38,744 bases of DNA from a virus (lineage: Duplodnaviria > Heunggongvirae > Uroviricota > Caudoviricetes), in IMG/VR virus record IMGVR_UViG_2703719354_000025; one strand, given 5' to 3'. The position numbers and the translations under genes were made by a program. Every line of letters begins with the position of its first letter. Position 1 is the first letter of the stretch. This document shows, piece after piece, positions 5,061-37,212 of this stretch. Below the pieces are notes generated by a model. The model was not told the DNA's origin. It saw nothing but the letters and a program-made list of their open reading frames with translations, and ran no database searches.

Positions 5061-5423
5061 TTAATGACCTGCTGCGCGGAGTTTTCCGTCAGGTTCACCG
5101 GCAAGAGTCAGTAATTGTCCCTGGTCTTCCTGCAGAATAGTCAGGCGACCACCGCGATTGACATACATCGGCGTTTCGGTGGTGTCTTCTTCGGAAATTT
5201 TCCCGCGGTTAGTCGGGCGAACATATGAGAGTTTGTGTTTGATTTTCACACGGTTCTCATCAAATGGTTCGATTTCCAGGTTGAGTGAGACCTTACCTTT
5301 GGTTTTCGTGTTCATCACACCGGAAGCGACTTCACTGAGAACTGCGCCGATTTTGGTTTCAAATACGCCGCCGTCCAGCTCCCCAATAAATGCCTGCACA
5401 TCAGTACTGCGTTCGCTAGCCAT
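5061..5423 (-). CDS. hypothetical phage protein (120 aa)
   Basis: Start set at the internal ATG at 5423 (MASERSTDVQAF...), preceded by AGGAG. The longer ORF-track version (to 5741) runs through a hairpin and non-coding-looking sequence. Confidence 0.7.
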   Translation of the reverse strand: MASERSTDVQAFIGELDGGVFETKIGAVLSEVASGVMNTKTKGKVSLNLEIEPFDENRVKIKHKLSYVRPTNRGKISEEDTTETPMYVNRGGRLTILQEDQGQLLTLAGEPDGKLRAAGH

Positions 5424-5473
5424 TTTTCTGCTCCTAATCATATCGACCCTGCAAGGTCGGTTGGTTTCTCCAC

Positions 5474-5558
5474 AAAACAGAGAAGAACACCTGCGGTGGC
5501 AGCCGCCCGGATGGATTGGGTTATGAGCCCGTCGTCCGGTGATGTTCTTCTCTGTTTT
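5474..5558. repeat. 16-bp perfect inverted repeat (long-loop hairpin) in the 5' UTR of the leftward operon
   Basis: AAAACAGAGAAGAACA at 5474-5489 and its exact reverse complement TGTTCTTCTCTGTTTT at 5543-5558, separated by 53 nt of GC-rich loop. Confidence 0.6.
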
Positions 5559-5861
5559 GTAAAAAGAGCGGTACCAGCCGGAAGCAAGTGTACAAACTGG
5601 TACCGCGAGGACTACACACAGCATAAAGTTGTGGTGCCGGGTGCCTCCCGGTGCCTGGCGAAAGTTGCACACCAGGCGGGTGGGTATCCACAGAAGGTCG
5701 ACTGTCAGCCTCAACCTTAACCCGCGTGCGCTGAGCCGCATTCACCACAACGCTAAGGATTCTCTCTGGTTGAAAATACTTAGCTGTTATGTGCCTGTCT
5801 TTTCACCACTTCAGGCTCGGTGGTATCTTGGTGTTTTCATATAGCCAAGAAGGAAATAGTT

Positions 5862-6396: not shown

Positions 6397-6426
6397 ACAT
6401 TATGTATCTCAAAGGTACATTGTCAA
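6397..6426 (-). promoter_or_regulatory. PL-like leftward early promoter with GTAC-type operator half-sites
   Basis: On the minus strand: -35 TTGACA (plus 6421-6426), 17-bp spacer, -10 CATAAT (plus 6398-6403). GGTACATT-type half-sites at 6393-6415 overlap the promoter. Confidence 0.5.
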
Positions 6427-6430
6427 GTAT

Positions 6431-6465: not shown

Positions 6466-7140
6466 TTAGGCTTTGATTTTGTATCTTCTTGGTTTTCCTG
6501 AGAAAATCACTGTACCAATTATAGAGCAATTACCGTTGATCTTAATGTAAGGCTCAGGCCAGTTTGGGTTTAACGCTTTGAGATAACGCTGTGTCCCATC
6601 TTCTATCAACCTTTTGAAGGTGGTTTCACCTGTATCGTGCATCAATGCAATAACGTCGTCACCGTGGCAGGCAGGTACTTCAGGATCGACAAAAATCATG
6701 TCTCCCGGGCGGTACTCATCAATCATTGAATCACCTATCACCCGCAAGATATAAGTCATTTCCCCACAGGGTACAGGGCAGGGATACGTTTCTGCTGTGC
6801 TCAAATCAACCTCAGAATATCCAACTTCTTTCCATGCTCCGGCCTGTACCCATGATATGACAGGGACTAATGTGATTTGTTTATTAGTGATTGAAACATC
6901 AGGTTTTTTTGTGATGTTCGTTGTCTGGTGTTCTTGATCGAGCCATCCGACAGGCAGGTCGAAACATTTTTCGATGTGTCGTGCCATGCTGTCACCGATA
7001 TTTTTAGTAGCACCATCTCCCATAAACCTGCTGGTCTGGGTTGGCTCGCGATCAATCATAGTGGCAAAGGAAGAATTCCCGCCAACACCATCTCTCAGTT
7101 TTCTGGCGTTAGACCGCCGGATGTCATGGATTGTTTTCAT
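6466..7140 (-). CDS. cI: CI-like repressor (N-terminal HTH, C-terminal S24 LexA-like peptidase domain)
   Basis: 224 aa. The C-terminal region (...RVIGDSMIDEYRPGDMIFVDPEVPACHGDDVIALMHDTGETTFKRLIEDGTQRYLKALNPNWPEPYIKINGNCSIIGTVIFSG) has the Ser/Lys autocleavage-domain pattern; divergent from the cro-like gene with operators in between. Confidence 0.9.
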   Translation of the reverse strand: MKTIHDIRRSNARKLRDGVGGNSSFATMIDREPTQTSRFMGDGATKNIGDSMARHIEKCFDLPVGWLDQEHQTTNITKKPDVSITNKQITLVPVISWVQAGAWKEVGYSEVDLSTAETYPCPVPCGEMTYILRVIGDSMIDEYRPGDMIFVDPEVPACHGDDVIALMHDTGETTFKRLIEDGTQRYLKALNPNWPEPYIKINGNCSIIGTVIFSGKPRRYKIKA

Positions 7141-9320: not shown

Positions 9321-9809
9321 ATGAGTCTTTTGAATGACGTTCAGAAATTCATTGAAGCCCATCCGGGCTGTACTTCCGGAGACATTGCGGATGCTTTTGC
9401 AGGTTACTCACGGCAGCGCGTTCTGCAGTCAGCAAGCAAGTTACGTCAGAGTGGGCGTGTGGCTCACCGTTGTGAAGGAGATACACACAGACATTTCCCG
9501 CGCCTGACTGAGAGAGCGCAGGATCCGGAACCACAACCAGTTCGTGAAACCAGACCTGTGCGCAATTTCTATGTCGGCACTAACGATCCACGGGTGATTT
9601 TGTGCCTGACCCGCCAGGCTGAAGAACTGGAGTCCAGGGGCTTATACCGTCGTGCTGCAACCGTGTGGATGGCGGCATTCCGTGAAAGCCACTCCCAGTC
9701 AGAACGAAACAATTTTCTGGCGCGCCGTGAGCGGTGCTTACGGAAAAGCAGCAAGCGCGCTGCATCGGGTGAAGAGTGGTATCTGTCAGGGAATTACGTG
9801 GGGGCTTAA
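9321..9809 (+). CDS. hypothetical phage protein (162 aa), possible winged-helix N-terminus
   Basis: ATG at 9321 preceded by AGGGGG; the ORF-track start at 9315 is GTG. Occupies the position after O; no confident family. Confidence 0.55.
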   Translation: MSLLNDVQKFIEAHPGCTSGDIADAFAGYSRQRVLQSASKLRQSGRVAHRCEGDTHRHFPRLTERAQDPEPQPVRETRPVRNFYVGTNDPRVILCLTRQAEELESRGLYRRAATVWMAAFRESHSQSERNNFLARRERCLRKSSKRAASGEEWYLSGNYVGA

Positions 9810-10462
9810 TGAGTAATAAATATTGCCAGGCGCTGGTGGAACTGCGGAACAAACCAGCCCATGAACTGAAGGAAGTGGGCGATCAGTGGCGCACGCCGGA
9901 CAACATTTTCTGTGGAATTAACACCCTGTTTGGCCCGTTTGTTCTGGATCTGTTTACTGACGGTGATAACGCCAAATGTGCCGCGTATTACACGGCGGAA
10001 GATAACGCGCTGGCGCATGACTGGTCAGAACGTCTTGCGGAGCTTAAAGGTGCTGCCTTTGGTAATCCCCCATACAGCCGCGCCAGTCAGCATGAGGGGC
10101 AATACATCACCGGCATGCGTTACATCATGAAACATGCCAGTGCCATGCGTGATAAGGGCGGGCGCTATGTTTTCCTGATCAAAGCTGCCACCAGCGAAGT
10201 GTGGTGGCCGGAAGATGCGGACCATATTGCTTTTATTCGCGGGCGTATTGGTTTTGAACTGCCTGCCTGGTTTATCCCGAAGGATGAGAAGCAGGTGCCG
10301 ACAGGCGCTTTCTTCGCTGGTGCTATTGCTGTTTTCGACAAGACCTGGAAGGGACCGGCAATCAGCTACATCGGGCGCGATGAACTTGAGGCATGTGGTG
10401 AAGCCTTTCTGGTGCAGGTTCGCCAGCAGGCGGAAAAACTGGTCAGGGAGATGGCGGCATGA
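9809..10462 (+). CDS. phage DNA N6-adenine methyltransferase (Dam-like)
   Basis: Start ATG at 9809 overlaps the upstream stop (TAATG). Translation contains WRTPDNIF...DLFTDGDNAKCAAYYT...GAAFGNPPYSR (NPPY catalytic motif of N6-adenine MTases). Confidence 0.85.
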   Translation: MSNKYCQALVELRNKPAHELKEVGDQWRTPDNIFCGINTLFGPFVLDLFTDGDNAKCAAYYTAEDNALAHDWSERLAELKGAAFGNPPYSRASQHEGQYITGMRYIMKHASAMRDKGGRYVFLIKAATSEVWWPEDADHIAFIRGRIGFELPAWFIPKDEKQVPTGAFFAGAIAVFDKTWKGPAISYIGRDELEACGEAFLVQVRQQAEKLVREMAA

Positions 10463-10785
10463 CGACGTTAACTCAATGCCAGCAGCAGGTGCTGGATATG
10501 CTGATTTCTTACCAGAAAGAGCGTGGCTTTCCGCCAACCAATCAGGAGGTGGCAACCATGCTGGGATACCGTTCAGTGAATGCAGCGGTAGAGCATCTTC
10601 GTGCACTGGAGAAAAAAGGCGTCATCACGATAAAGCGTGGCGTGGCCCGGGGGATAACGCTTCATACCGCGGTGAAGGACGACGACAGCGAGGCGGTCGG
10701 GATTATCCGCGCACTGCTTGCCGGTGAGGAAAACGCCAGGCTGCGTGCAGCCCACTGGTTACATGAGAGAGGCCTGAAAGTATGA
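10459..10785 (+). CDS. LexA N-terminal DNA-binding-domain protein lacking the peptidase domain (108 aa)
   Basis: MTTLTQCQQQVLDMLISYQKERGFPPTNQEVATMLGYRSVNAAVEHLRALEKKGVITIKRGVARGITL aligns by eye with the LexA winged-helix domain ([58 protein letters not shown]...); no Ser/Lys catalytic domain follows. Confidence 0.75.
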   Translation: MTTLTQCQQQVLDMLISYQKERGFPPTNQEVATMLGYRSVNAAVEHLRALEKKGVITIKRGVARGITLHTAVKDDDSEAVGIIRALLAGEENARLRAAHWLHERGLKV

Positions 10786-11171
10786 AGCTGATCTTGCCTT
10801 TCCCGCCCAGCGTGAACACGTACTGGCGACACCCCAACAAAGGGGCGTTTGCTGGTAAGAGCCTGATAAGCGCGGCGGGGCGAAAATTCCAGAGCGCGGC
10901 GTGTGCAGCAATAGTTGAGCAGTTACGTCGTCTGCCGAAACCAACGTCGGCACCTGCTTCAGTGGAGATCGTGTTGTTTCCTCCGGATAACCGGATCCGC
11001 GATCTGGACAACTATAACAAGGCGCTGTTTGACGCCCTGACCCACGCGGGTGTGTGGGAAGACGACAGTCAGGTGAAAAGAATGCTGGTGGAGTGGGGAC
11101 CGGTTATCCCGGAAGGGAAGGTCGAGATCACTATCAGTAAGTACGAGAAAACGGCGGGTGCAGCCGCCTGA
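10782..11171 (+). CDS. rusA: Holliday junction resolvase RusA
   Basis: 129 aa; MKLILPFPPSVNTYWRH...NRIRDLDNYNKALFDALTHAGVWEDDSQV matches the RusA family pattern, including the catalytic Asp-rich region. Confidence 0.9.
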   Translation: MKLILPFPPSVNTYWRHPNKGAFAGKSLISAAGRKFQSAACAAIVEQLRRLPKPTSAPASVEIVLFPPDNRIRDLDNYNKALFDALTHAGVWEDDSQVKRMLVEWGPVIPEGKVEITISKYEKTAGAAA

Positions 11172-11190
11172 TTAAGAGGAGAAACGAAGT

Positions 11191-12000
11191 ATGAATAATC
11201 TGATGGTCATTGATGGTATTGAAGTTCGTCGTGATGCTTATGGGCGTTACAGCCTGAACGATCTGCATCGCGCAGCAGTAGCATCTGGTGCAAATGCCAG
11301 AACCAAGGAGCCGGGAAAGTTTCTTTCCAGCCAACAAACTGTTGAGCTTGTTCATGAATTGACCAACACCCAGAATTTGGGTGTTGACCCGGTGAGTGTG
11401 ATTCATGGGGGAAATGAACGGGGAACGTATGTCTGCAAGGAACTGGTGTATGCCTATGCAATGTGGATCAGCCCGTCATTCCATCTGAAGGTGATCCGTA
11501 CTTTCGATATGGTAACCAGCGCACCGGAAAAATTATCCGGACAGGCTGCTGACAAGATGCAGGCTGGCGTGATCCTGCTGGACTTTATGCGCCGGGAGTT
11601 AAACCTGTCTAACTCTTCAGTGCTTGGTGCCTGTCAGAAACTCCAGGAGGCTGTTGGCTTACCGAATCTGGCACCGCGCTATGCCATTGATGCTCCTGCT
11701 GACGCGCCTGATGGCTCAAGCCGCCCCACGCTGTCATTGAGTGCACTGCTGAAGCAGTATGGTATCCGCCTGACGGCTAATCAGGCATATCACCAGATGG
11801 TGAAGCTGGGGATCGTCGAGCAGCGAGAACGGTACAGCCGTACCACGATTAACAACATCAAAAAATTCTGGTCGCTGACAGCGAAAGGCTGCATGTTCGG
11901 CAAGAATATCACCAGTCCCGCAAATCCGCGCGAGACGCAGCCGCACTTCTTCGAATCCCGATTCCCTGAGCTGTTAAAGCTGCTCGATACCGTTCATTGA
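11191..12000 (+). CDS. KilA-N domain protein (putative antirepressor-like)
   Basis: N-terminal IDGIEVRRDAYGRYSLNDLHRAA... is a KilA-N-type DNA-binding domain; RBS AAGAGGAG. Confidence 0.7.
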   Translation: MNNLMVIDGIEVRRDAYGRYSLNDLHRAAVASGANARTKEPGKFLSSQQTVELVHELTNTQNLGVDPVSVIHGGNERGTYVCKELVYAYAMWISPSFHLKVIRTFDMVTSAPEKLSGQAADKMQAGVILLDFMRRELNLSNSSVLGACQKLQEAVGLPNLAPRYAIDAPADAPDGSSRPTLSLSALLKQYGIRLTANQAYHQMVKLGIVEQRERYSRTTINNIKKFWSLTAKGCMFGKNITSPANPRETQPHFFESRFPELLKLLDTVH

Positions 12001-12001
12001 G

Positions 12002-12997
12002 GTGACCGTGAGAGCACTACTGACCCCTGAAATTGCCCCGCGTATGGGGATCGTATTGTTCAGACCAGGTTCAGAGCTGATGCCCCTGTTTATGCAGGGG
12101 CGTGTCCTGCTGGAGCCTGAGCCGGAACGTTATTCATCTTTCGCCAGTGGTGCCGTTCCGGCGGCATCACAACCGCTGGCGGATGATCCTGCCGTTCAGG
12201 CCGTGTTCCGCAATGAGGCAGTGATCCGTCGTGCTGGTGGCGTGGAATGTCTTGAAAGCTGGTTACTTCGTGAAAAAGGCTGCCAGTGGCCTCATTCCGA
12301 CTGGCACAGCGAGAACATGACCACAATGCGACACGCTCCGGGCGCAATCCGTCTGTGCTGGCACTGCGATAACCAGCTGCGCGATCAGTTCACGGAACGG
12401 CTGGAATCAATGGCAACGGATAACTGTGCCCGCTGGGTGTTGTCTGTTGTGCGTCGGGATCTCGGTTTTGATGACAGTCACGTTGTGACAATGCCGGAAC
12501 TGTGCTGGTGGCTGATTCGTAATGATCTGGCGGATGCCTTACCGGAAAGTGCAGCCCGTAAGGCACTGAGATTACCGAAGCCTGTTGTGCCGTCTGTTAC
12601 CCGGGAAAGTGACCTTGTGCCTTCGGTTCCTGCCACCAGCATCATCCAGGATAAGGCGAAAAAGGTGCTGGCGCTGAAAGTGGATCCGGAGTCGCCGGAG
12701 TCTTTTATGTTACGCCCAAAACGTCGCCGCTGGGTTAATGAAAAGTACACGCGCTGGGTTAAGACACAGCCGTGTGCATGTTGTGGAAAGCCTGCTGATG
12801 ATCCCCACCACTTGATAGGCCACGGTCAGGGTGGGATGGGTACAAAAGCGCATGACCTCTTTGTGTTGCCTTTGTGCAGAAAGCATCACGACGAGCTGCA
12901 TGCGGATACCGTGGCATTTGAAGAGAAGTATGGCTCCCAGCTGGAGCTGATATTTCGTTTTATCGATCGTGCGCTGGCAATTGGCGTGCTGGCCTGA
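12002..12997 (+). CDS. DUF968-like phage protein with C-terminal HNH-type Zn-finger nuclease motif
   Basis: C-terminal CACCGKPADDPHHLIGHGQGGMGTKAHDLFVLPLCRKHHDELH (Cys pairs plus His); GTG start per ORF track. Confidence 0.6.
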   Translation: MTVRALLTPEIAPRMGIVLFRPGSELMPLFMQGRVLLEPEPERYSSFASGAVPAASQPLADDPAVQAVFRNEAVIRRAGGVECLESWLLREKGCQWPHSDWHSENMTTMRHAPGAIRLCWHCDNQLRDQFTERLESMATDNCARWVLSVVRRDLGFDDSHVVTMPELCWWLIRNDLADALPESAARKALRLPKPVVPSVTRESDLVPSVPATSIIQDKAKKVLALKVDPESPESFMLRPKRRRWVNEKYTRWVKTQPCACCGKPADDPHHLIGHGQGGMGTKAHDLFVLPLCRKHHDELHADTVAFEEKYGSQLELIFRFIDRALAIGVLA

Positions 12998-13014
12998 TTT
13001 TGTGGAGAAAGTTG

Positions 13015-13362
13015 ATGCGTGATATGTATGAAGTGATGGATCGTTGGGGAGCTTGGGCTGCTTCAGACAATAGCGGAGTGGACTGGCAACCGGTAGCCGC
13101 TGGCTTCAAGGGGCTTTTACCTCATGGCAAAAAGTCCCGGATTCAGTGTGATGATGATGAGGGGCTCATGATCGATGGGTGCGTAGCTAGATTAAGAAAG
13201 TACAAACCAGAAGAGTATGAATTAGTTATAGCCCATTTTGTGGTAGGGATTTCATTGCGAGCCATTGCTAAGAAGAGAAAGTGTTCGGATGGGACTATCA
13301 GGAAAGAGTTGCAAACATCGCTTGGTTTCATTGAAGGCATTGTTTGCACTCTTGCCTGTTAA
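13015..13362 (+). CDS. late-gene antiterminator Q (small QuuD-like Q family)
   Basis: ATG at 13015 with GGAG upstream (the ORF-track start at 13000 is TTG); C-terminal HTH-like ELVIAHFVVGISLRAIAKKRKCSDGTIRKEL; positioned just upstream of the late promoter/terminator and lysis genes. Confidence 0.6.
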   Translation: MRDMYEVMDRWGAWAASDNSGVDWQPVAAGFKGLLPHGKKSRIQCDDDEGLMIDGCVARLRKYKPEEYELVIAHFVVGISLRAIAKKRKCSDGTIRKELQTSLGFIEGIVCTLAC

Positions 13363-13383: not shown

Positions 13384-14268
13384 TTATATTGGGCGCTTTG
13401 AATTCGATTTAAAGCGTCTTCCACTTATCCCTGAAATCCAAATGTCTTCCTCAAGAAAGTCAAGAAGGGCTTTTATTTCTTTTTTTGATGAAGGCATGAC
13501 AATTTTCTCAACACCGCCAACTATTATGGTTTGTAAGGGGAAATTGACTTTAGCAGCTTCGGATTTAAACTTTGACATATTTTGGGGTGTTAGCATCCCA
13601 GTCTGATTTATTAGTGTTACTTTATTTCTTATCACTGTATCTGCAACGGATTTTAGATCAAAACCTTGGGGAGTAGAAAATACACTAAGTTGACTAAATG
13701 CATTAAGTTCTTGGTCAGTAGCAGCAGAAAAATAGGACGACATGTCAAAAATGCTTCTTAGATTAAAGAAACTCTTAAATCGTATTGTATCATTGATAAT
13801 TATTGCAACTAGTTTATCATCAACATTAAAACCGATGCTATTAGCTTTACTAAAGGTAGTTTTGCTTGCAAAAAGCTTTCCAAAGAATGATTTTGAGGTA
13901 TCTAAGATTTGTTTTTTGTTGAAGGTTTGTAGCGCAATAATATTGGGGTTTGCTGGCGCGTCAACACCAACAAATAATGCTTTAATATAACCAATATCAA
14001 TTTGGCTGGGATCCCAGACAGGCACGGCGGTAGGCCTATTGACTGCGTCAATCAGGCGTGCAGAATCAGTAAAGTTTTGTATTTCAAAACACTCACTATG
14101 TTTTGGTGTATAACCGGCATAGAATGGTATCATATTGTTATGATGACTTTCAAAATATTGACGCTGTTGTTGGAAAATGGCCGTAACAGAAGTACTTGCT
14201 GTTGCATCAAGTTCGACTCTAACAATTCTCGTTGCAATTGTATTATCTATTACTGCAAAAAGTGCCAT
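13384..14268 (-). CDS. unknown 294-aa soluble protein, AT-rich moron gene (downstream gene of a 2-gene cassette)
   Basis: ATG at 14268 with AAGGA RBS; 5-bp gap from the upstream membrane gene; AT-rich codon usage; no motif recognised. Confidence 0.6.
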   Translation of the reverse strand: MALFAVIDNTIATRIVRVELDATASTSVTAIFQQQRQYFESHHNNMIPFYAGYTPKHSECFEIQNFTDSARLIDAVNRPTAVPVWDPSQIDIGYIKALFVGVDAPANPNIIALQTFNKKQILDTSKSFFGKLFASKTTFSKANSIGFNVDDKLVAIIINDTIRFKSFFNLRSIFDMSSYFSAATDQELNAFSQLSVFSTPQGFDLKSVADTVIRNKVTLINQTGMLTPQNMSKFKSEAAKVNFPLQTIIVGGVEKIVMPSSKKEIKALLDFLEEDIWISGISGRRFKSNSKRPI

Positions 14269-14273
14269 GGTTA

Positions 14274-14795
14274 TTATCCTTTAACATGTAGAAATGTGTA
14301 GTCTGTTAATTGAATAACTGTAAATTTGATATCTTTAATATCAGTAATGACTGATTTAGAAATCAATACAAAACCTACGCCGGTGTCATCTTCAGCTTCG
14401 TAAAATTTATAACCGATAAGTGACAATACTGGGTTAAAGTTATAGTTCTCGGAAAAGCTGATGTAAAATAACAATGACAAATAAAAGAATAACGCATATG
14501 CTTTATTTTCAGCAATAGAGTCTGTTCCTAGGAGAGGGAATAAATAGCTTAAGAAATAATTAGTTACTTCTTTGTTAGCGGGAGAAACTGAACTAATATT
14601 TTTTGTCAGAGGTTCAAGTTGTTTCTCAGCATATTGAATCAGGCCTATTGCTAATAACCAACTTGCTATGCCAACGCATAAGCTATATTGCATCAGCCAA
14701 ACCGTATCTTTTACATATCCAATAAAAAATAGAGTTGCGCAAACAGGTGCAATTGAGCTTGCTGTTAATAATAAGCGTGCTAATTTGTTCATCAT
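14274..14795 (-). CDS. unknown 173-aa integral membrane protein (about 4 TM helices), AT-rich moron gene
   Basis: ATG at 14795 with AAGGA RBS; four hydrophobic stretches (LLLTASSIAPVCATLFFIGYV, YSLCVGIASWLLAIGLIQY, NYFLSYLFPLLG, AYALFFYLSLLFYISF) followed by a soluble C-terminal tail of about 55 aa. Confidence 0.6.
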   Translation of the reverse strand: MMNKLARLLLTASSIAPVCATLFFIGYVKDTVWLMQYSLCVGIASWLLAIGLIQYAEKQLEPLTKNISSVSPANKEVTNYFLSYLFPLLGTDSIAENKAYALFFYLSLLFYISFSENYNFNPVLSLIGYKFYEAEDDTGVGFVLISKSVITDIKDIKFTVIQLTDYTFLHVKG

Positions 14796-14954
14796 GATAT
14801 CCTTTGTACTGTTTATGCATACAGCACTTTACATCATGTACTCCAAAGTATCTATCTTGTGAAGAATCTTACACTAAATACTACAGAAAAAGTTAACGCG
14901 TACGCAAAAAGTATTATATCGTGTTAAGAGTGGTTACTTCGCCACACAGCTTAA

Positions 14955-14985
14955 ACCCGCCATTGAGCGGGTTTTGTCGTTTTTG
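14955..14985 (+). terminator. tR'-like rho-independent terminator downstream of a probable Q-dependent late promoter
   Basis: CCCGC-CATTGAG-CGGG stem-loop followed by TTTTGTCGTTTTT, about 140 bp upstream of the holin start; candidate promoter elements in 14890-14925 (TTAACG ... TATATC). Confidence 0.55.
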
Positions 14986-29116: not shown

Positions 29117-30493
29117 ATGGATTTATCCTCATTTCCCACCCGACCTTCATTACTTTCGTCGTCTTCAGGCTGGCGTGACAGACTTCAGGACGCGTCATTT
29201 CGCGGTGTGCCGTTTAAGGTTGAAGAAGAAAGTGCGGGAACCGGTCGCCGTGTGGAAACACATGAATACCCGAACCGCGACAAGCCCTATACCGAAGATC
29301 TGGGAAAAGTCACTTTCCGCCCGTCCATCACAGCTTATGTAGTGGGAGATGACTGCTTTGACCAGCGCGATCGCCTGATTGAAGCGCTGAATAAACCCGG
29401 TCCCGGCACGCTTGTCCACCCGACATACGGTGAGCTGAAAGTCTGTGTTGACGGGGAAGTTCGGGTCAGCACATCGAAAAGTGAAGGGCGTATTGTCCGC
29501 TTTGACCTGAAGTTTGTCGAAGCAGGAGAACTCTCTTACCCCACATCAGGTGCGGCGACGGCGCAGACGCTGATGTCATCCTGTTCTGCACTGGATGACT
29601 GCATCAGTGACAGCTTCAGCGGTTTCAGTATCGATGGTGTGGCGGATTTCGTGCAGAACGACGTTATCGGTAATGCCAGCACAATGCTTGGGTATGTTTC
29701 TGATGCGATGAAAGTGGTGGATTCTGCCGTATCGGATGCCGCCAGGCTGTTGCAGGGGGATATCTCGGTACTTCTGCCGCCGCCATCGTCAGGCAAAAAT
29801 TTCGTTGAGCAGGTGCAGAAAATGTGGCGTACCGGGAAACGCCTTTATGGTAACGCCAGCGACCTGGTCACCATGATCAAAACGCTTTCCGGTGTCAGCC
29901 TCGGCAGCGATCTGCAACCGCGCGGCGTCTGGAAAACGGACAGTAAAACCACCGCCACGGCGACGCAGCAGCGTAACGTGGTTGCCAGCACCCTTCGTAC
30001 GACCGCAATCAGCGAAGCGGCGTATGCCGTCACCCGATTGCCTGCGCCAACAACTTCCGCGGTGATGCAGAATTCCGCAGTGGGGCAGGCAACAACACCC
30101 GCGCAGAGCACTGGCTGGCCTTCCGTCACGCATCCGGCACTGAACAATGCACCGGCGGTGAAAAACACGGTTGACCTGCCGACGTGGGAAGAACTGACTG
30201 ACATTCGCGACACACTGAATACGGCAATTGATAAGGAGTTGTCCCGTACAACCAGTGATGCGCTGTTTCTGGCGCTGCGCCGGGTGAAAGCAGATCTGAA
30301 TGCGGATATCAACACGCGCCTTGAACAGTCTGCACGGATCATTCAGCGCACACCGGATGAGGTTTTACCCGCGCTGGTGCTGGCGGCGACCTGGTTTGAT
30401 AACGCGGCGCGTGACGCGGACATTATCCGGCGTAATGCCATTACGCATCCCGGCTTTGTGCCGGTGATCCCTCTGAAGGTGCCAGTGCAATGA
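29117..30493 (+). CDS. DNA circularisation protein (Mu gpN-like)
   Basis: 458 aa, position and Mu-like order. Confidence 0.75.
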   Translation: MDLSSFPTRPSLLSSSSGWRDRLQDASFRGVPFKVEEESAGTGRRVETHEYPNRDKPYTEDLGKVTFRPSITAYVVGDDCFDQRDRLIEALNKPGPGTLVHPTYGELKVCVDGEVRVSTSKSEGRIVRFDLKFVEAGELSYPTSGAATAQTLMSSCSALDDCISDSFSGFSIDGVADFVQNDVIGNASTMLGYVSDAMKVVDSAVSDAARLLQGDISVLLPPPSSGKNFVEQVQKMWRTGKRLYGNASDLVTMIKTLSGVSLGSDLQPRGVWKTDSKTTATATQQRNVVASTLRTTAISEAAYAVTRLPAPTTSAVMQNSAVGQATTPAQSTGWPSVTHPALNNAPAVKNTVDLPTWEELTDIRDTLNTAIDKELSRTTSDALFLALRRVKADLNADINTRLEQSARIIQRTPDEVLPALVLAATWFDNAARDADIIRRNAITHPGFVPVIPLKVPVQ

Positions 30494-31569: not shown

Positions 31570-32117
31570 TGAGAACGATTGAAGCCATGCAGCGACAACT
31601 TCTCGGCCTGATTGGGCGGGCAGTGGTGAAAAGCATCAGTGCCGCCACGAAATGCCAGACCGTGGATGTGTCCCTGATTGCCGGTGAACCCAAAGCCGGG
31701 GTTGAACATCTTGAACCCTATGGTTTTACCGCAAGGGCAAACAGCGGTGCGGAAGCGGTGGTGTTGTTTCCGGATGGCGACCGTTCTCATGCGGTGGTTG
31801 TTACGGTGTCGGACCGGCGCTACCGCCTGAAAGGGCTGCAGACGGGTGAGGTGGCTGTCTATGACGATCAGGGGCAGTCCGTGACGCTGACCCGGGAGGG
31901 GATCGTGGTGGACGGTGCAGGTAAAACGATCACGTTTCGCAATTCACCTAAAGCACGTTTTGAAATGGACCTGGAAGTGACCGGACAGGTGAAAGACCTG
32001 TGCGACTCCGGCGGCACCACCATGTCAGCGATGCGGCTTGCCTATAACGGGCATCGTCACAGAGAGAACGGGCAGGGCAGTAACACCGACAAACCTGATA
32101 AAGCGATGGAGGCATGA
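31569..32117 (+). CDS. baseplate assembly protein V / spike (Mu gp45-like)
   Basis: 182 aa, position and Mu-like order. Confidence 0.75.
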   Translation: MRTIEAMQRQLLGLIGRAVVKSISAATKCQTVDVSLIAGEPKAGVEHLEPYGFTARANSGAEAVVLFPDGDRSHAVVVTVSDRRYRLKGLQTGEVAVYDDQGQSVTLTREGIVVDGAGKTITFRNSPKARFEMDLEVTGQVKDLCDSGGTTMSAMRLAYNGHRHRENGQGSNTDKPDKAMEA

Positions 32118-35456: not shown

Positions 35457-36476
35457 TTATTTTACTGCTAAAATTCGTTTTCTTAGCATCAGCTCTAAAG
35501 GCTCCTCAACTAATTTATAAAGTATGATTGAGACTATGGTTATTATAACAAGGAGCGCTATTAAATAGAGTGGTCCGGGGTTATGTCCAAAGATTTTAAA
35601 GCAAAATAATATAATGGGTTGATGAATTAAATAAAAAATAAATGATGATTTCCCTAATAGCTCTAGGGTTTTTGAACTGAGGATAGTATGAATGACTCCA
35701 TTTCTTAGATAGATGCATGAAGTAAAGAATATTACCATGGGGAGTAAATAATATAACGAATAACGTAGACTATTATTTATGTTGTTGCTATAATATATAG
35801 CTATTAGCAGAGGTAATAGTGAAATTAAAAACAAAAGGCTGTCGACTGTCTGCTGTCGGCTGTTTTTCCAGCAAGCGTAAATAATCATGCCGCAAATAAA
35901 TTCTACCAAGCGGCTTACTGGGAATATATAATATAACCAGTGATTAAGTTCTTCTGTTTGTATAATTTTTAAAAAATATATAGTTAATAGTAGAGTTATA
36001 ATTGATATTGCAGTGATTACTTTCTTTGTAATTGATGTATAAATCAACGGAATAAACATTAAATAAAAAAACAGCTCATCAGACAAAGACCATGATACAC
36101 CATTTAATGAGAAGTAGTAATCCTCCTTTGGTATCCAACTTTGCATTAATAAAATATTTGTTAAGGTTTTTGAAAAATCAAAGTTCTTTAAGTGAATGGT
36201 TAGTAAAATAAATGGCATGGCTAATAATAGATGCATTGGAACAATTCTTGCCAATCTTAAAAGAATAAACTGTCTTTTACTTGTTACTTCATTTTTTAGC
36301 TTGTCTTCATATGAATATGAAAGAATGAAGCCAGATAAAATAAAGAAAAAGGAAACGCCAATAAATCCCTGGGAAAACATTTCTTTTACAAAAACACCAA
36401 AATAGTCTGTATTTAAATGGCATAAATAAACCATTAATGCAGCTATAAATCTGAGTCCTGTTAAGTGGCGAAGCAT
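35457..36476 (-). CDS. acyltransferase family 3 membrane protein (O-antigen/LPS acetyltransferase-like)
   Basis: Polytopic membrane protein with the acyltransferase-3 N-terminal pattern (RHLTGLRFIAALMVYLCHL...); start set at the ATG at 36476 with GAGG RBS (the ORF-track start at 36506 is TTG). Very AT-rich. Confidence 0.8.
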   Translation of the reverse strand: MLRHLTGLRFIAALMVYLCHLNTDYFGVFVKEMFSQGFIGVSFFFILSGFILSYSYEDKLKNEVTSKRQFILLRLARIVPMHLLLAMPFILLTIHLKNFDFSKTLTNILLMQSWIPKEDYYFSLNGVSWSLSDELFFYLMFIPLIYTSITKKVITAISIITLLLTIYFLKIIQTEELNHWLYYIFPVSRLVEFICGMIIYACWKNSRQQTVDSLLFLISLLPLLIAIYYSNNINNSLRYSLYYLLPMVIFFTSCIYLRNGVIHTILSSKTLELLGKSSFIFYLIHQPIILFCFKIFGHNPGPLYLIALLVIITIVSIILYKLVEEPLELMLRKRILAVK

Positions 36477-37212
36477 CAATAACCTCTTGTTATGAAGATA
36501 AAGCAATTCAAAAGAGGCATTTTATGACTGTAGGGGATTGGTGTCTATATGAATGAGTAATCTGGTTTTTAAAATCTTCTTTAATTACAAAATAAACCTT
36601 TCTTAGGCTATAGATTTGTGGCTGTAACACTGTGTGTCCACGACATTGAGACATCCTTCCGCTTTGCTATAGATGTGGAATTCAGGATCAAGCGATATCG
36701 GACTCATCCTCAGCACCACCCGGTTAATCTGGATAACGGGAGAAGGGAAGCGCTGCCAGAAGATGATGATGGTTACAGTTCTGCACTGGCTATTCTGCAC
36801 TGGCTATATTCGTGGTGATCACTTACATAATTAATGACGCCAGGAATACGGAGTTTGATGATTGCCTGGTGATGTGAGAAAAAACTCATACACACAAAGC
36901 TTTGAACTGGATTGCAAGGCTTTGTGCTATTCGATAGCACGAGTTTGAATGAAAATCAGCCGTTATCGATTTTACGTATTTTTGTATGAGAGGATTTTTA
37001 CCTCCTCCCACCGATCCTCCATAACTTTACGACACTGTCTCTAGGACTGCTATGTGCCAAGAGCGGAATTTTCTAATATTATGCTGCATTCGTTTAAGGG
37101 GAGCAGATCAGCTAACGACTCCTACGTCCTGGGGAAAGGTCACATATGCTAAACAGCAGCTCAGCAAAGAGAAGAGCGAATTTGGTAACGGGAAACCGTT
37201 ATGATATGAATA

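Follow-up and report, generated by a model that had tools for sequence, protein, structure and literature searches.

A prophage-encoded LexA DNA-binding domain with a conserved helical tail in place of the autoprotease domain: a candidate RecA-insensitive binder of SOS boxes

The SOS response is the driving force behind prophage induction, release of Shiga toxin, mutagenesis and tolerance of antibiotics in Escherichia coli, and an operator-binding protein immune to activated RecA (RecA*) would be a direct viral handle on it. Does the 108-residue protein encoded between dam and rusA in virus record IMGVR_UViG_2703719354_000025 (Caudoviricetes) provide such a handle? The stretch analyzed here (the window, 38,744 nucleotides; positions are counted on the whole stretch) is SfII/SfV-like prophage DNA, and the gene in question encodes a LexA-type N-terminal domain (NTD) followed by a short helical tail. 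This gene occurs in roughly two fifths of sequenced E. coli strains and in clinically relevant Shiga toxin 2 (Stx2) phages, and is known only as annotation. Our tentative answer, to which we give not quite an even chance, is that its product is a RecA-insensitive DNA binder of the SOS-box type, dimerized through its tail and made in lytic growth, which would keep SOS-box genes repressed. The gene and the parts of its product are as follows.

10459 to 10785, plus strand, stop codon included: LexA-NTD-plus-tail gene, 108 residues (from the list of open reading frames; ATG start; PF01726; PHROG 362)
10459 to 10668, plus strand: LexA-type winged helix-turn-helix, residues 1-70 (helices 6-22, 28-35 and 40-52; beta wing 56-68)
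10573 to 10599, plus strand: recognition helix SVNAAVEHL, residues 39-47 (alignment to E. coli LexA)
10678 to 10767, plus strand: two-helix C-terminal tail, residues 74-103 (helices 74-88 and 93-103), proposed dimerization module

By sequence and fold comparison, residues 1-70 are a genuine LexA-type NTD of the kind that reads CTGT, derived from proteobacterial LexA. The Pfam model PF01726 (LexA_DNA_bind) is matched over its full length by residues 1-65 (E=2.9e-19), and the top PDB sequence match by phmmer is the NTD of E. coli LexA (1lea; E=6.5e-16, 50% identity over residues 2-70). An AlphaFold2 model of the 108-residue protein has a mean predicted local distance difference test score (pLDDT) of 84, with residues 1-70 at 79-90. 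Foldseek superposes it on DNA-bound E. coli LexA (3jso) with a root-mean-square deviation of 0.8 Å over 68 residues at 50% identity; the range against 3jso and 1lea is 0.8-1.2 Å. The first-pass annotation, made from the sequence alone, had recognized the LexA N-terminal domain by eye, and it was right: the PF01726 match and the 3jso superposition argue against a generic winged helix.

The recognition helix, RSVNAAVEHL, is of the gammaproteobacterial LexA type. According to secondary sources, LexA contacts DNA through S39, N41, A42, E44 and E45 (e.g., PMC3091678). Four of these five positions are retained in the phage protein (S39, N41, A42 and E45), with V instead of E at position 44, and the recognition-helix residues whose loss would have spoken for a mere winged helix are thus largely kept. 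For comparison we used a control set consisting of the LexA-related NTDs of 80 gamma- and betaproteobacterial loci (78 canonical), each as far from the query as E. coli LexA. These loci came from a profile search of genome contigs, the matches of which were almost all canonical host lexA genes, e.g., from Halomonas. In this set S39, A43, H46, L47, R64 and G65 are invariant, N41, A42, R28 and E44 are each present in 79 of the 80 sequences, and S63 is present in 76. Phage positions 40-42 (V-N-A) fall within the range of the canonical control sequences.

The autoprotease half of LexA is missing. A Pfam search of the 108-residue protein gave no match to the Peptidase_S24 domain, and the lexA equivalog model TIGR00498 was matched only at positions 1-91 of 203, with 70.5 bits against a cutoff of 110.95. 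The open reading frame ends at 10785 with rusA following, leaving no room for a domain with the Ser119/Lys156 dyad. The absent S24 match and the sub-cutoff TIGR00498 score agree with what had been noted at first reading, and because the autoprotease domain is absent, RecA*-stimulated self-cleavage is impossible. The first-pass annotation also suggested heterodimerization with host LexA. This is excluded through the usual interface, since LexA dimerizes through its C-terminal domain, which is missing here; the NTDs of LexA do form an interface of their own on the operator, and contacts of this kind on DNA could still occur (PMC3159453).

The HMMER alignment to LexA runs on through the cleavage-site region, with LLAGE (residues 86-90) opposite VAAGE and A88-G89 aligned with the Ala84-Gly85 scissile bond. 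This alignment, together with the existence of an NTD-NTD interface on operators, speaks for another explanation, namely that the protein interferes with host LexA or RecA as a monomeric, SOS-inducing competitor, as an LLAGE decoy for RecA* or the LexA active site, or as a binder of the LexA NTD on DNA. However, the family does not conserve the A-G dipeptide, showing TR, ER, SG, DD, AC and other pairs in its place, and an A88S allele is present in E. coli. The AlphaFold2 model predicts the region to be helical, unlike the beta-hairpin cleavage loop, and occupancy of operators would repress rather than induce. We rejected LLAGE as a vestigial cleavage site or decoy on the first three of these points, and we consider interference with LexA or RecA improbable.

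In place of the lost domain there is a conserved helical tail of 35 residues which the first-pass annotation had overlooked. The tail is modeled at a pLDDT of about 88, and a linker modeled with low confidence (residues 71-75) connects it to the winged helix. Homologs down to 40% identity share the pattern EAVxxIRALLAxExxARxRAxxxL, in which A97 and L101 do not vary, and homologs at 40-52% identity have the same length and retain the tail. The bare LexA DNA-binding domain does not repress sulA but does so once fused to any dimerizing partner (PMC10761746), and the tail therefore probably decides whether the phage protein acts.

Other LexA derivatives without a C-terminal domain came to light in our comparisons. 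These include P0157, P0161, P0164 and P0134 (140-165 residues) and P0141 (78 residues), and some such derivatives carry two tandem LexA DNA-binding domains on one chain, a covalent "dimer". Numerous phages, Mycobacterium phage Wildcat and tectiviruses among them, have minimal NTD-only proteins of 65-80 residues (BFVD matches). The protease domain seems to have been lost repeatedly, with differing solutions to dimerization.

Where the gene lies bears on when its product is made. Its neighbors in the window, including the early-right operon to which it belongs, are listed here.

6466 to 7140, minus strand: CI-type S24 repressor
7463, early-right operon: CII-like
8377: replication protein
9315: PerC-like
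9809 to 10462, plus strand: phage Dam N6-adenine methyltransferase, the upstream neighbor (PF05869, E=5.8e-45; start taken from the RefSeq annotation of an identical prophage segment)
10459 to 10462, plus strand: overlap of the Dam stop and the LexA-NTD start, ATGA (sequence; translational coupling)
10782 to 10785, plus strand: overlap of the LexA-NTD stop and the RusA start, ATGA (sequence and open reading frame coordinates; the arrangement recurs in divergent homologs)
10782 to 11171, plus strand: RusA Holliday-junction resolvase, the downstream neighbor (PF05866, E=6e-15)
11191: KilA-N
12002: DUF968/HNH
13000 to 13362: Q antiterminator (PF06530)
13384 to 14795, reverse strand: kwaB-kwaA (Kiwa) cassette
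15126: holin

The PF05869 and PF05866 matches on either side confirm the placement between Dam and RusA given at first reading. No promoter-like site was seen upstream of the LexA-NTD gene inside the early-right operon. The gene should be transcribed with the early-right (PR) operon and coupled translationally between dam and rusA, and its protein should be made with the delayed-early lytic genes. Since it sits in this operon, production is expected after infection or induction and not in the quiescent lysogen. An influence on the prophage's own induction, as proposed in the first-pass annotation, is unlikely for a gene expressed from the lytic early-right operon, while an effect after induction or infection is plausible.

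The gene is widespread. It was matched in 2233 of 5426 complete E. coli genomes (41%), nearly always at 95% or higher nucleotide identity, and in 50 phage records, among them SfII, mEp460, Ayreon, Stx2a_1447/WGPS2 and numerous Stx2c phages. The proteins of SfII, mEp460, the Stx2a/2c phages and the 2233 genomes are 96-100% identical. PHROG 362 is matched over its full length, tail included (E=1.6e-59, positions 1-106 of 106), and the family corresponds to the RefSeq "LexA family transcriptional regulator" of about 106-116 residues. GenBank/RefSeq, PHROG 362 and a survey of Stx phages thus already identify the gene, with labels such as "LexA DNA binding domain protein", "repressor, lexA family" and "LexA family transcriptional regulator". 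The survey lists what is apparently the same gene as "pham 237, pfam01726" (PMC8136144). The SOS-type helix combined with a conserved tail makes it a variant of phage truncated LexA. PADLOC made no defense-system assignment for the protein.

Being a truncated version of a host gene, and dispensable as described below, it might be taken for a non-functional remnant of a captured lexA. This is effectively refuted by the selection analysis. Over 56 distinct E. coli alleles the ratio of nonsynonymous to synonymous polymorphism (pN/pS) is 0.05, tail included, with synonymous changes across both halves, and the gene is under strong purifying selection. Because length and tail are also conserved down to 40% identity, it is not a decayed fragment; its presence in two fifths of complete E. 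coli genomes and its intact translational coupling further contradict decay.

Despite this selection, the gene is dispensable, since precise natural deletions exist. In three prophages that are near-identical in other respects, Dam and RusA meet at a precise junction without the gene (L191 at 6672, L232 at 6672 and L200 at 7068). Here the Dam stop abuts the RusA start at the position that the cassette occupies between its two ATGA junctions, providing natural isogenic comparisons. The gene is thus an accessory cassette and not a partner needed by RusA.

A looser functional tie to its neighbors is nonetheless conceivable, in which the protein assists recombination or replication with RusA or Dam by binding DNA structures or recruiting RusA, with no transcription role. 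We examined six divergent contexts with downstream sequence (L006, L007, L008/L009, L010/L011, L012/L013 and L014). RusA lies downstream of the homolog in five of them and abuts it directly in four, usually with overlapping codons. The upstream neighbor varies among Dam, a C5/D12 methylase and a replication gene, being a DNA methyltransferase in most. However, this adjacency is unspecific, as the whole early-right operon is syntenic across related phages, and the nin-like position upstream of rusA is shared by the window, SfII, mEp460, Stx2a_1447, Ayreon and the divergent homologs. In L007 a reverse-strand gene stands between the homolog and RusA, in L010/L011 a 67-residue open reading frame intervenes and RusA lies 200 nucleotides downstream, and Ayreon has the LexA-NTD gene without Dam. 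RusA of other lambdoid phages (phage 82, DLP12) works without a LexA-NTD gene. The gene-free junctions and the insertions before rusA led us to reject an obligate RusA partnership, and they leave even an auxiliary role beside RusA or Dam with a small chance.

If the protein reads SOS boxes, such sites should be sought in the prophage itself. We scored sites with a position weight matrix that was built from about 20 E. coli operators of the literature and is approximate. A search of the prophage for CTGT-N8-ACAG palindromes, which the first-pass annotation had proposed, yielded one strong box:

14807 to 14826, no strand assigned: candidate operator TACTGTTTATGCATACAGCA (exact CTGT-N8-ACAG; 22.5 bits)

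It is the only strong SOS box in the window, scoring above the median of the training operators; the next best site has 10 bits, and 22.5 bits was reached in none of 300 shuffles. Other spacings and orientations of CTGT/ACAG half-sites were not enriched in the window. The box stands directly upstream of the kwaA Shine-Dalgarno sequence and is part of the Kiwa cassette. Among 80 closely related prophages, 39 carry one or more strong SOS boxes no farther than 10 kb from the gene, at differing places: twenty lie within the repressor gene, twenty where a late-region DNA methylase gene begins, three just after rusA and one before Kiwa.

The Kiwa anti-phage system lies on the minus strand between Q and the holin gene (kwaB 13384-14268, kwaA 14274-14795; PADLOC, KwaB E=2e-149 and KwaA E=1e-82), and the full cassette is present in 33 of 5426 E. 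coli genomes. The near-consensus SOS box before kwaA suggests an SOS-inducible, prophage-borne defense system. We found no literature linking Kiwa with LexA or an SOS box.

Three further SOS boxes were encountered in related phages. One allele of the CI repressor gene has the near-perfect box TACTGTTTTTATATACAGTA (26.5 bits) within its coding sequence, at L002 (SfII) 29167-29186, L004 (Stx2a_1447) 6408-6427 and L003 (mEp460) 31970-31989, and all 80 loci with that allele (L174-L253) carry the box. This box falls in the linker between the helix-turn-helix and S24 domains (codons 70-76, NTVYKNS) and is followed by an in-frame GAGGA-N10-GTG (V83). One possibility is an SOS-controlled internal start giving a CI fragment with the C-terminal domain only; another is a LexA roadblock within cI. 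We rejected a coupling of the LexA-NTD gene to this allele: 50 of 56 box-bearing loci have the gene, but linkage explains the co-occurrence, as the loci are near-identical, and many other immunity types are found with the gene as well. The box TACTGTAAAAATAAACAGTG (22 bits) overlaps the opening codons of the "DNA methylase" gene of the late region, which lies downstream of Q in mEp460, Ayreon and Stx2a phages (L003 41021-41040; L004 15934-15953; L005 41489-41508) and in 20 of the 80 loci L094-L173; in the Stx phage it is upstream of the stx2 genes. The box TACTGTATTTATGAACAGTG (21.4 bits) was found in three loci of L094-L173, 764 nucleotides downstream of the LexA-NTD start and just after rusA, before whatever replaces the KilA-N gene in those three prophages.

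Taken together, these data allow a mechanism to be sketched. The protein would be a LexA-derived DNA-binding regulator in which a short two-helix tail takes the place of the autoprotease/dimerization domain and provides dimerization. Its LexA-type recognition helix would read CTGT-type half-sites, and the dimer would occupy SOS-box-like operators. Lacking the cleavage domain, it would stay bound while RecA* destroys host LexA, and genes controlled by SOS boxes would be re-repressed or kept repressed in lytic growth and, after infection, kept from induction. Repression would probably fall on host SOS functions, on competitor elements that depend on SOS and on phage-borne boxes, of which the Kiwa one here is an example, presumably to the benefit of the phage. 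Fold, absent protease, conserved contacts, the confidently modeled tail, operon position and the low pN/pS all support this mechanism, as do the significant SOS box in the window, the boxes near the gene in 39 of 80 relatives and the precedent of gp6, a truncated LexA homolog of the Bacillus tectivirus GIL01.

A number of observations weigh against it. The phage protein carries N28, V44 and A63 where LexA has R28, E44 and S63, and both R28 and E44 are absent from every member of the phage tail family, which thus bears a signature of its own on the surface that faces the DNA. With these three residues changed, an operator specificity identical to that of LexA is not assured, and the substitutions suggest that affinity or specificity may differ. 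Recognition helices of the wider phage family are much more variable than those of canonical LexA (e.g., SVNTIAGHL and SSNAVLLHL). In the divergent loci L006-L014, compared with window positions 9776-12997, the LexA-NTD protein is only 42-51% identical, while RusA is 66-77%, Dam 78% and DUF968 52-69% identical. The gene thus evolves much faster between phage lineages, yet is strongly purified within the E. coli lineage, and a variable helix together with fast divergence is not expected from strict mimicry of a conserved host operator. In 41 of the 80 related loci the 10 kb around the gene contain no strong SOS box, nor was one found in the L001 prophage, which has an identical gene. The reading also depends on the tail replacing the lost dimerization function, as we infer, and we found no functional study of the phage LexA-NTD-plus-tail family in the literature.

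The boxless loci led us to reject an obligatory phage-borne operator. Phage-borne SOS boxes are frequent but optional, and the host regulon would be the only constant target if the protein binds SOS boxes.

The same observations lend weight to the main competing explanation, in which the captured LexA domain reads a phage-specific operator and tunes a phage promoter as activator or repressor. The family-wide loss of R28 and E44, the change at S63 and the variable recognition helix would fit a shifted specificity, as would divergence faster than that of neighboring genes, which is seen in specificity-determining regulators; GIL01 gp6 again offers a precedent. Against this stand the helix of the E. 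coli clade, still LexA-like at four of five contacts, and the failure to find either an enriched alternative CTGT/ACAG spacing in the window or a conserved alternative site. Furthermore, late genes are already served by the Q antiterminator, and precise deletion in intact relatives shows that the gene is not a core switch component. We therefore regard a shifted specificity as unlikely, although a serious contender. Auxiliary function beside RusA or Dam, interference with LexA or RecA and the remnant explanation are all less likely than either SOS-box repression or a shifted specificity.

The strongest form of the SOS-box reading would be a phage-imposed SOS off switch: a RecA-proof, tail-dimerized LexA mimic in about 40% of E. 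coli strains that re-occupies SOS boxes genome-wide in lytic growth. We hold this doubtful. If true, such a switch would silence host SOS functions, SOS-triggered competitor prophages and SOS-controlled defense or toxin genes such as Kiwa, and this would affect mutagenesis, Shiga-toxin output and competition among prophages. Given the prevalence of the gene and its occurrence in Stx2 phages, the biology is plausibly consequential. If specificity is instead shifted, phage re-use of a captured LexA domain would have arisen independently a second time, GIL01 gp6 being the first, pointing to a recurrent evolutionary route.

Several other features of the prophage were recorded. The integration site adjoins tRNA-Thr(CGT) (1369-1444) and lies downstream of a gene for a proA-like aldehyde dehydrogenase; the integrase gene is at 1459-2622. 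An Rfam match to the small RNA STnc100 (5559-5781, minus strand; 48.5 bits, gathering score 47) overlaps the 5' part of an unannotated open reading frame (5061-5741) in the early-left region. The segment 14894-15125 between the Kiwa cassette and the holin gene is conserved in 1146 E. coli genomes and contains a strong intrinsic terminator (14953-14985, plus strand). This segment probably represents the PR'/tR' late-promoter region, the Q target, moved away from Q by the Kiwa insertion. An Acyl_transf_3 gene (35457-36506, reverse strand) resembles the O-antigen acyltransferase moron of SfII.

How does the phage protein compare with known systems? With E. coli LexA it shares the winged helix-turn-helix fold and S39, N41, A42, A43, E45, H46, L47 and the wing residues R64-G65-I66. 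It differs in lacking the S24 autoprotease/dimerization domain (Ser119/Lys156) and hence RecA*-triggered inactivation, in the substitutions R28N, E44V and S63A, in its new two-helix tail and in its location in a lytic operon. The LexA(1-84) cleavage fragment is likewise a free NTD without the C-terminal domain, and keeps weak operator binding. This fragment is normally cleared by ClpXP/Lon (PMC3159453). The phage protein ends in GLKV, not in the cleavage-exposed VAA degron of LexA(1-84), and has an additional conserved helical module, from which we infer that, unlike the fragment, it may be stable.

The closest functional analogy to the proposed mechanism is engineered fusions of LexA's DNA-binding domain to a heterologous dimerization module, which repress the sulA operator and are uncleavable (PMC10761746). 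Those fusions, known from LexA-based bacterial two-hybrid systems and dimerization reporters, use residues 1-87 of E. coli LexA, whereas the phage DNA-binding domain has three non-canonical substitutions and the role of its tail is conjectural.

Our literature search found no characterized phage analog other than GIL01 gp6. This 66-residue truncated LexA homolog activates the late promoter P3 by binding a non-SOS palindrome, GaCACA..TGTGaC, at -43.5 (PMC6182141). Like the protein described here, gp6 is phage-encoded, consists of a LexA DNA-binding domain with no protease domain and is an early-operon product made after LexA loss. In contrast, gp6 has no helical tail, and its helix is VSHKTAHRYL, with a critical K38, where the phage protein has RSVNAAVEHL. 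The latter thus retains an SOS-type helix, and it sits in a Q-antiterminated lambdoid phage. Since BLASTP gave no alignment between the two proteins, we regard them as independent captures.

Some proteins of mobile elements, namely plasmid PsiB, DinI-like proteins and GIL01 gp7, dampen or remodel the SOS response of the host. The target of PsiB and DinI is RecA. GIL01 gp7 acts on LexA (PMC6182141). All of these work by protein-protein contact with LexA or RecA, whereas the phage protein would occupy the operators itself.

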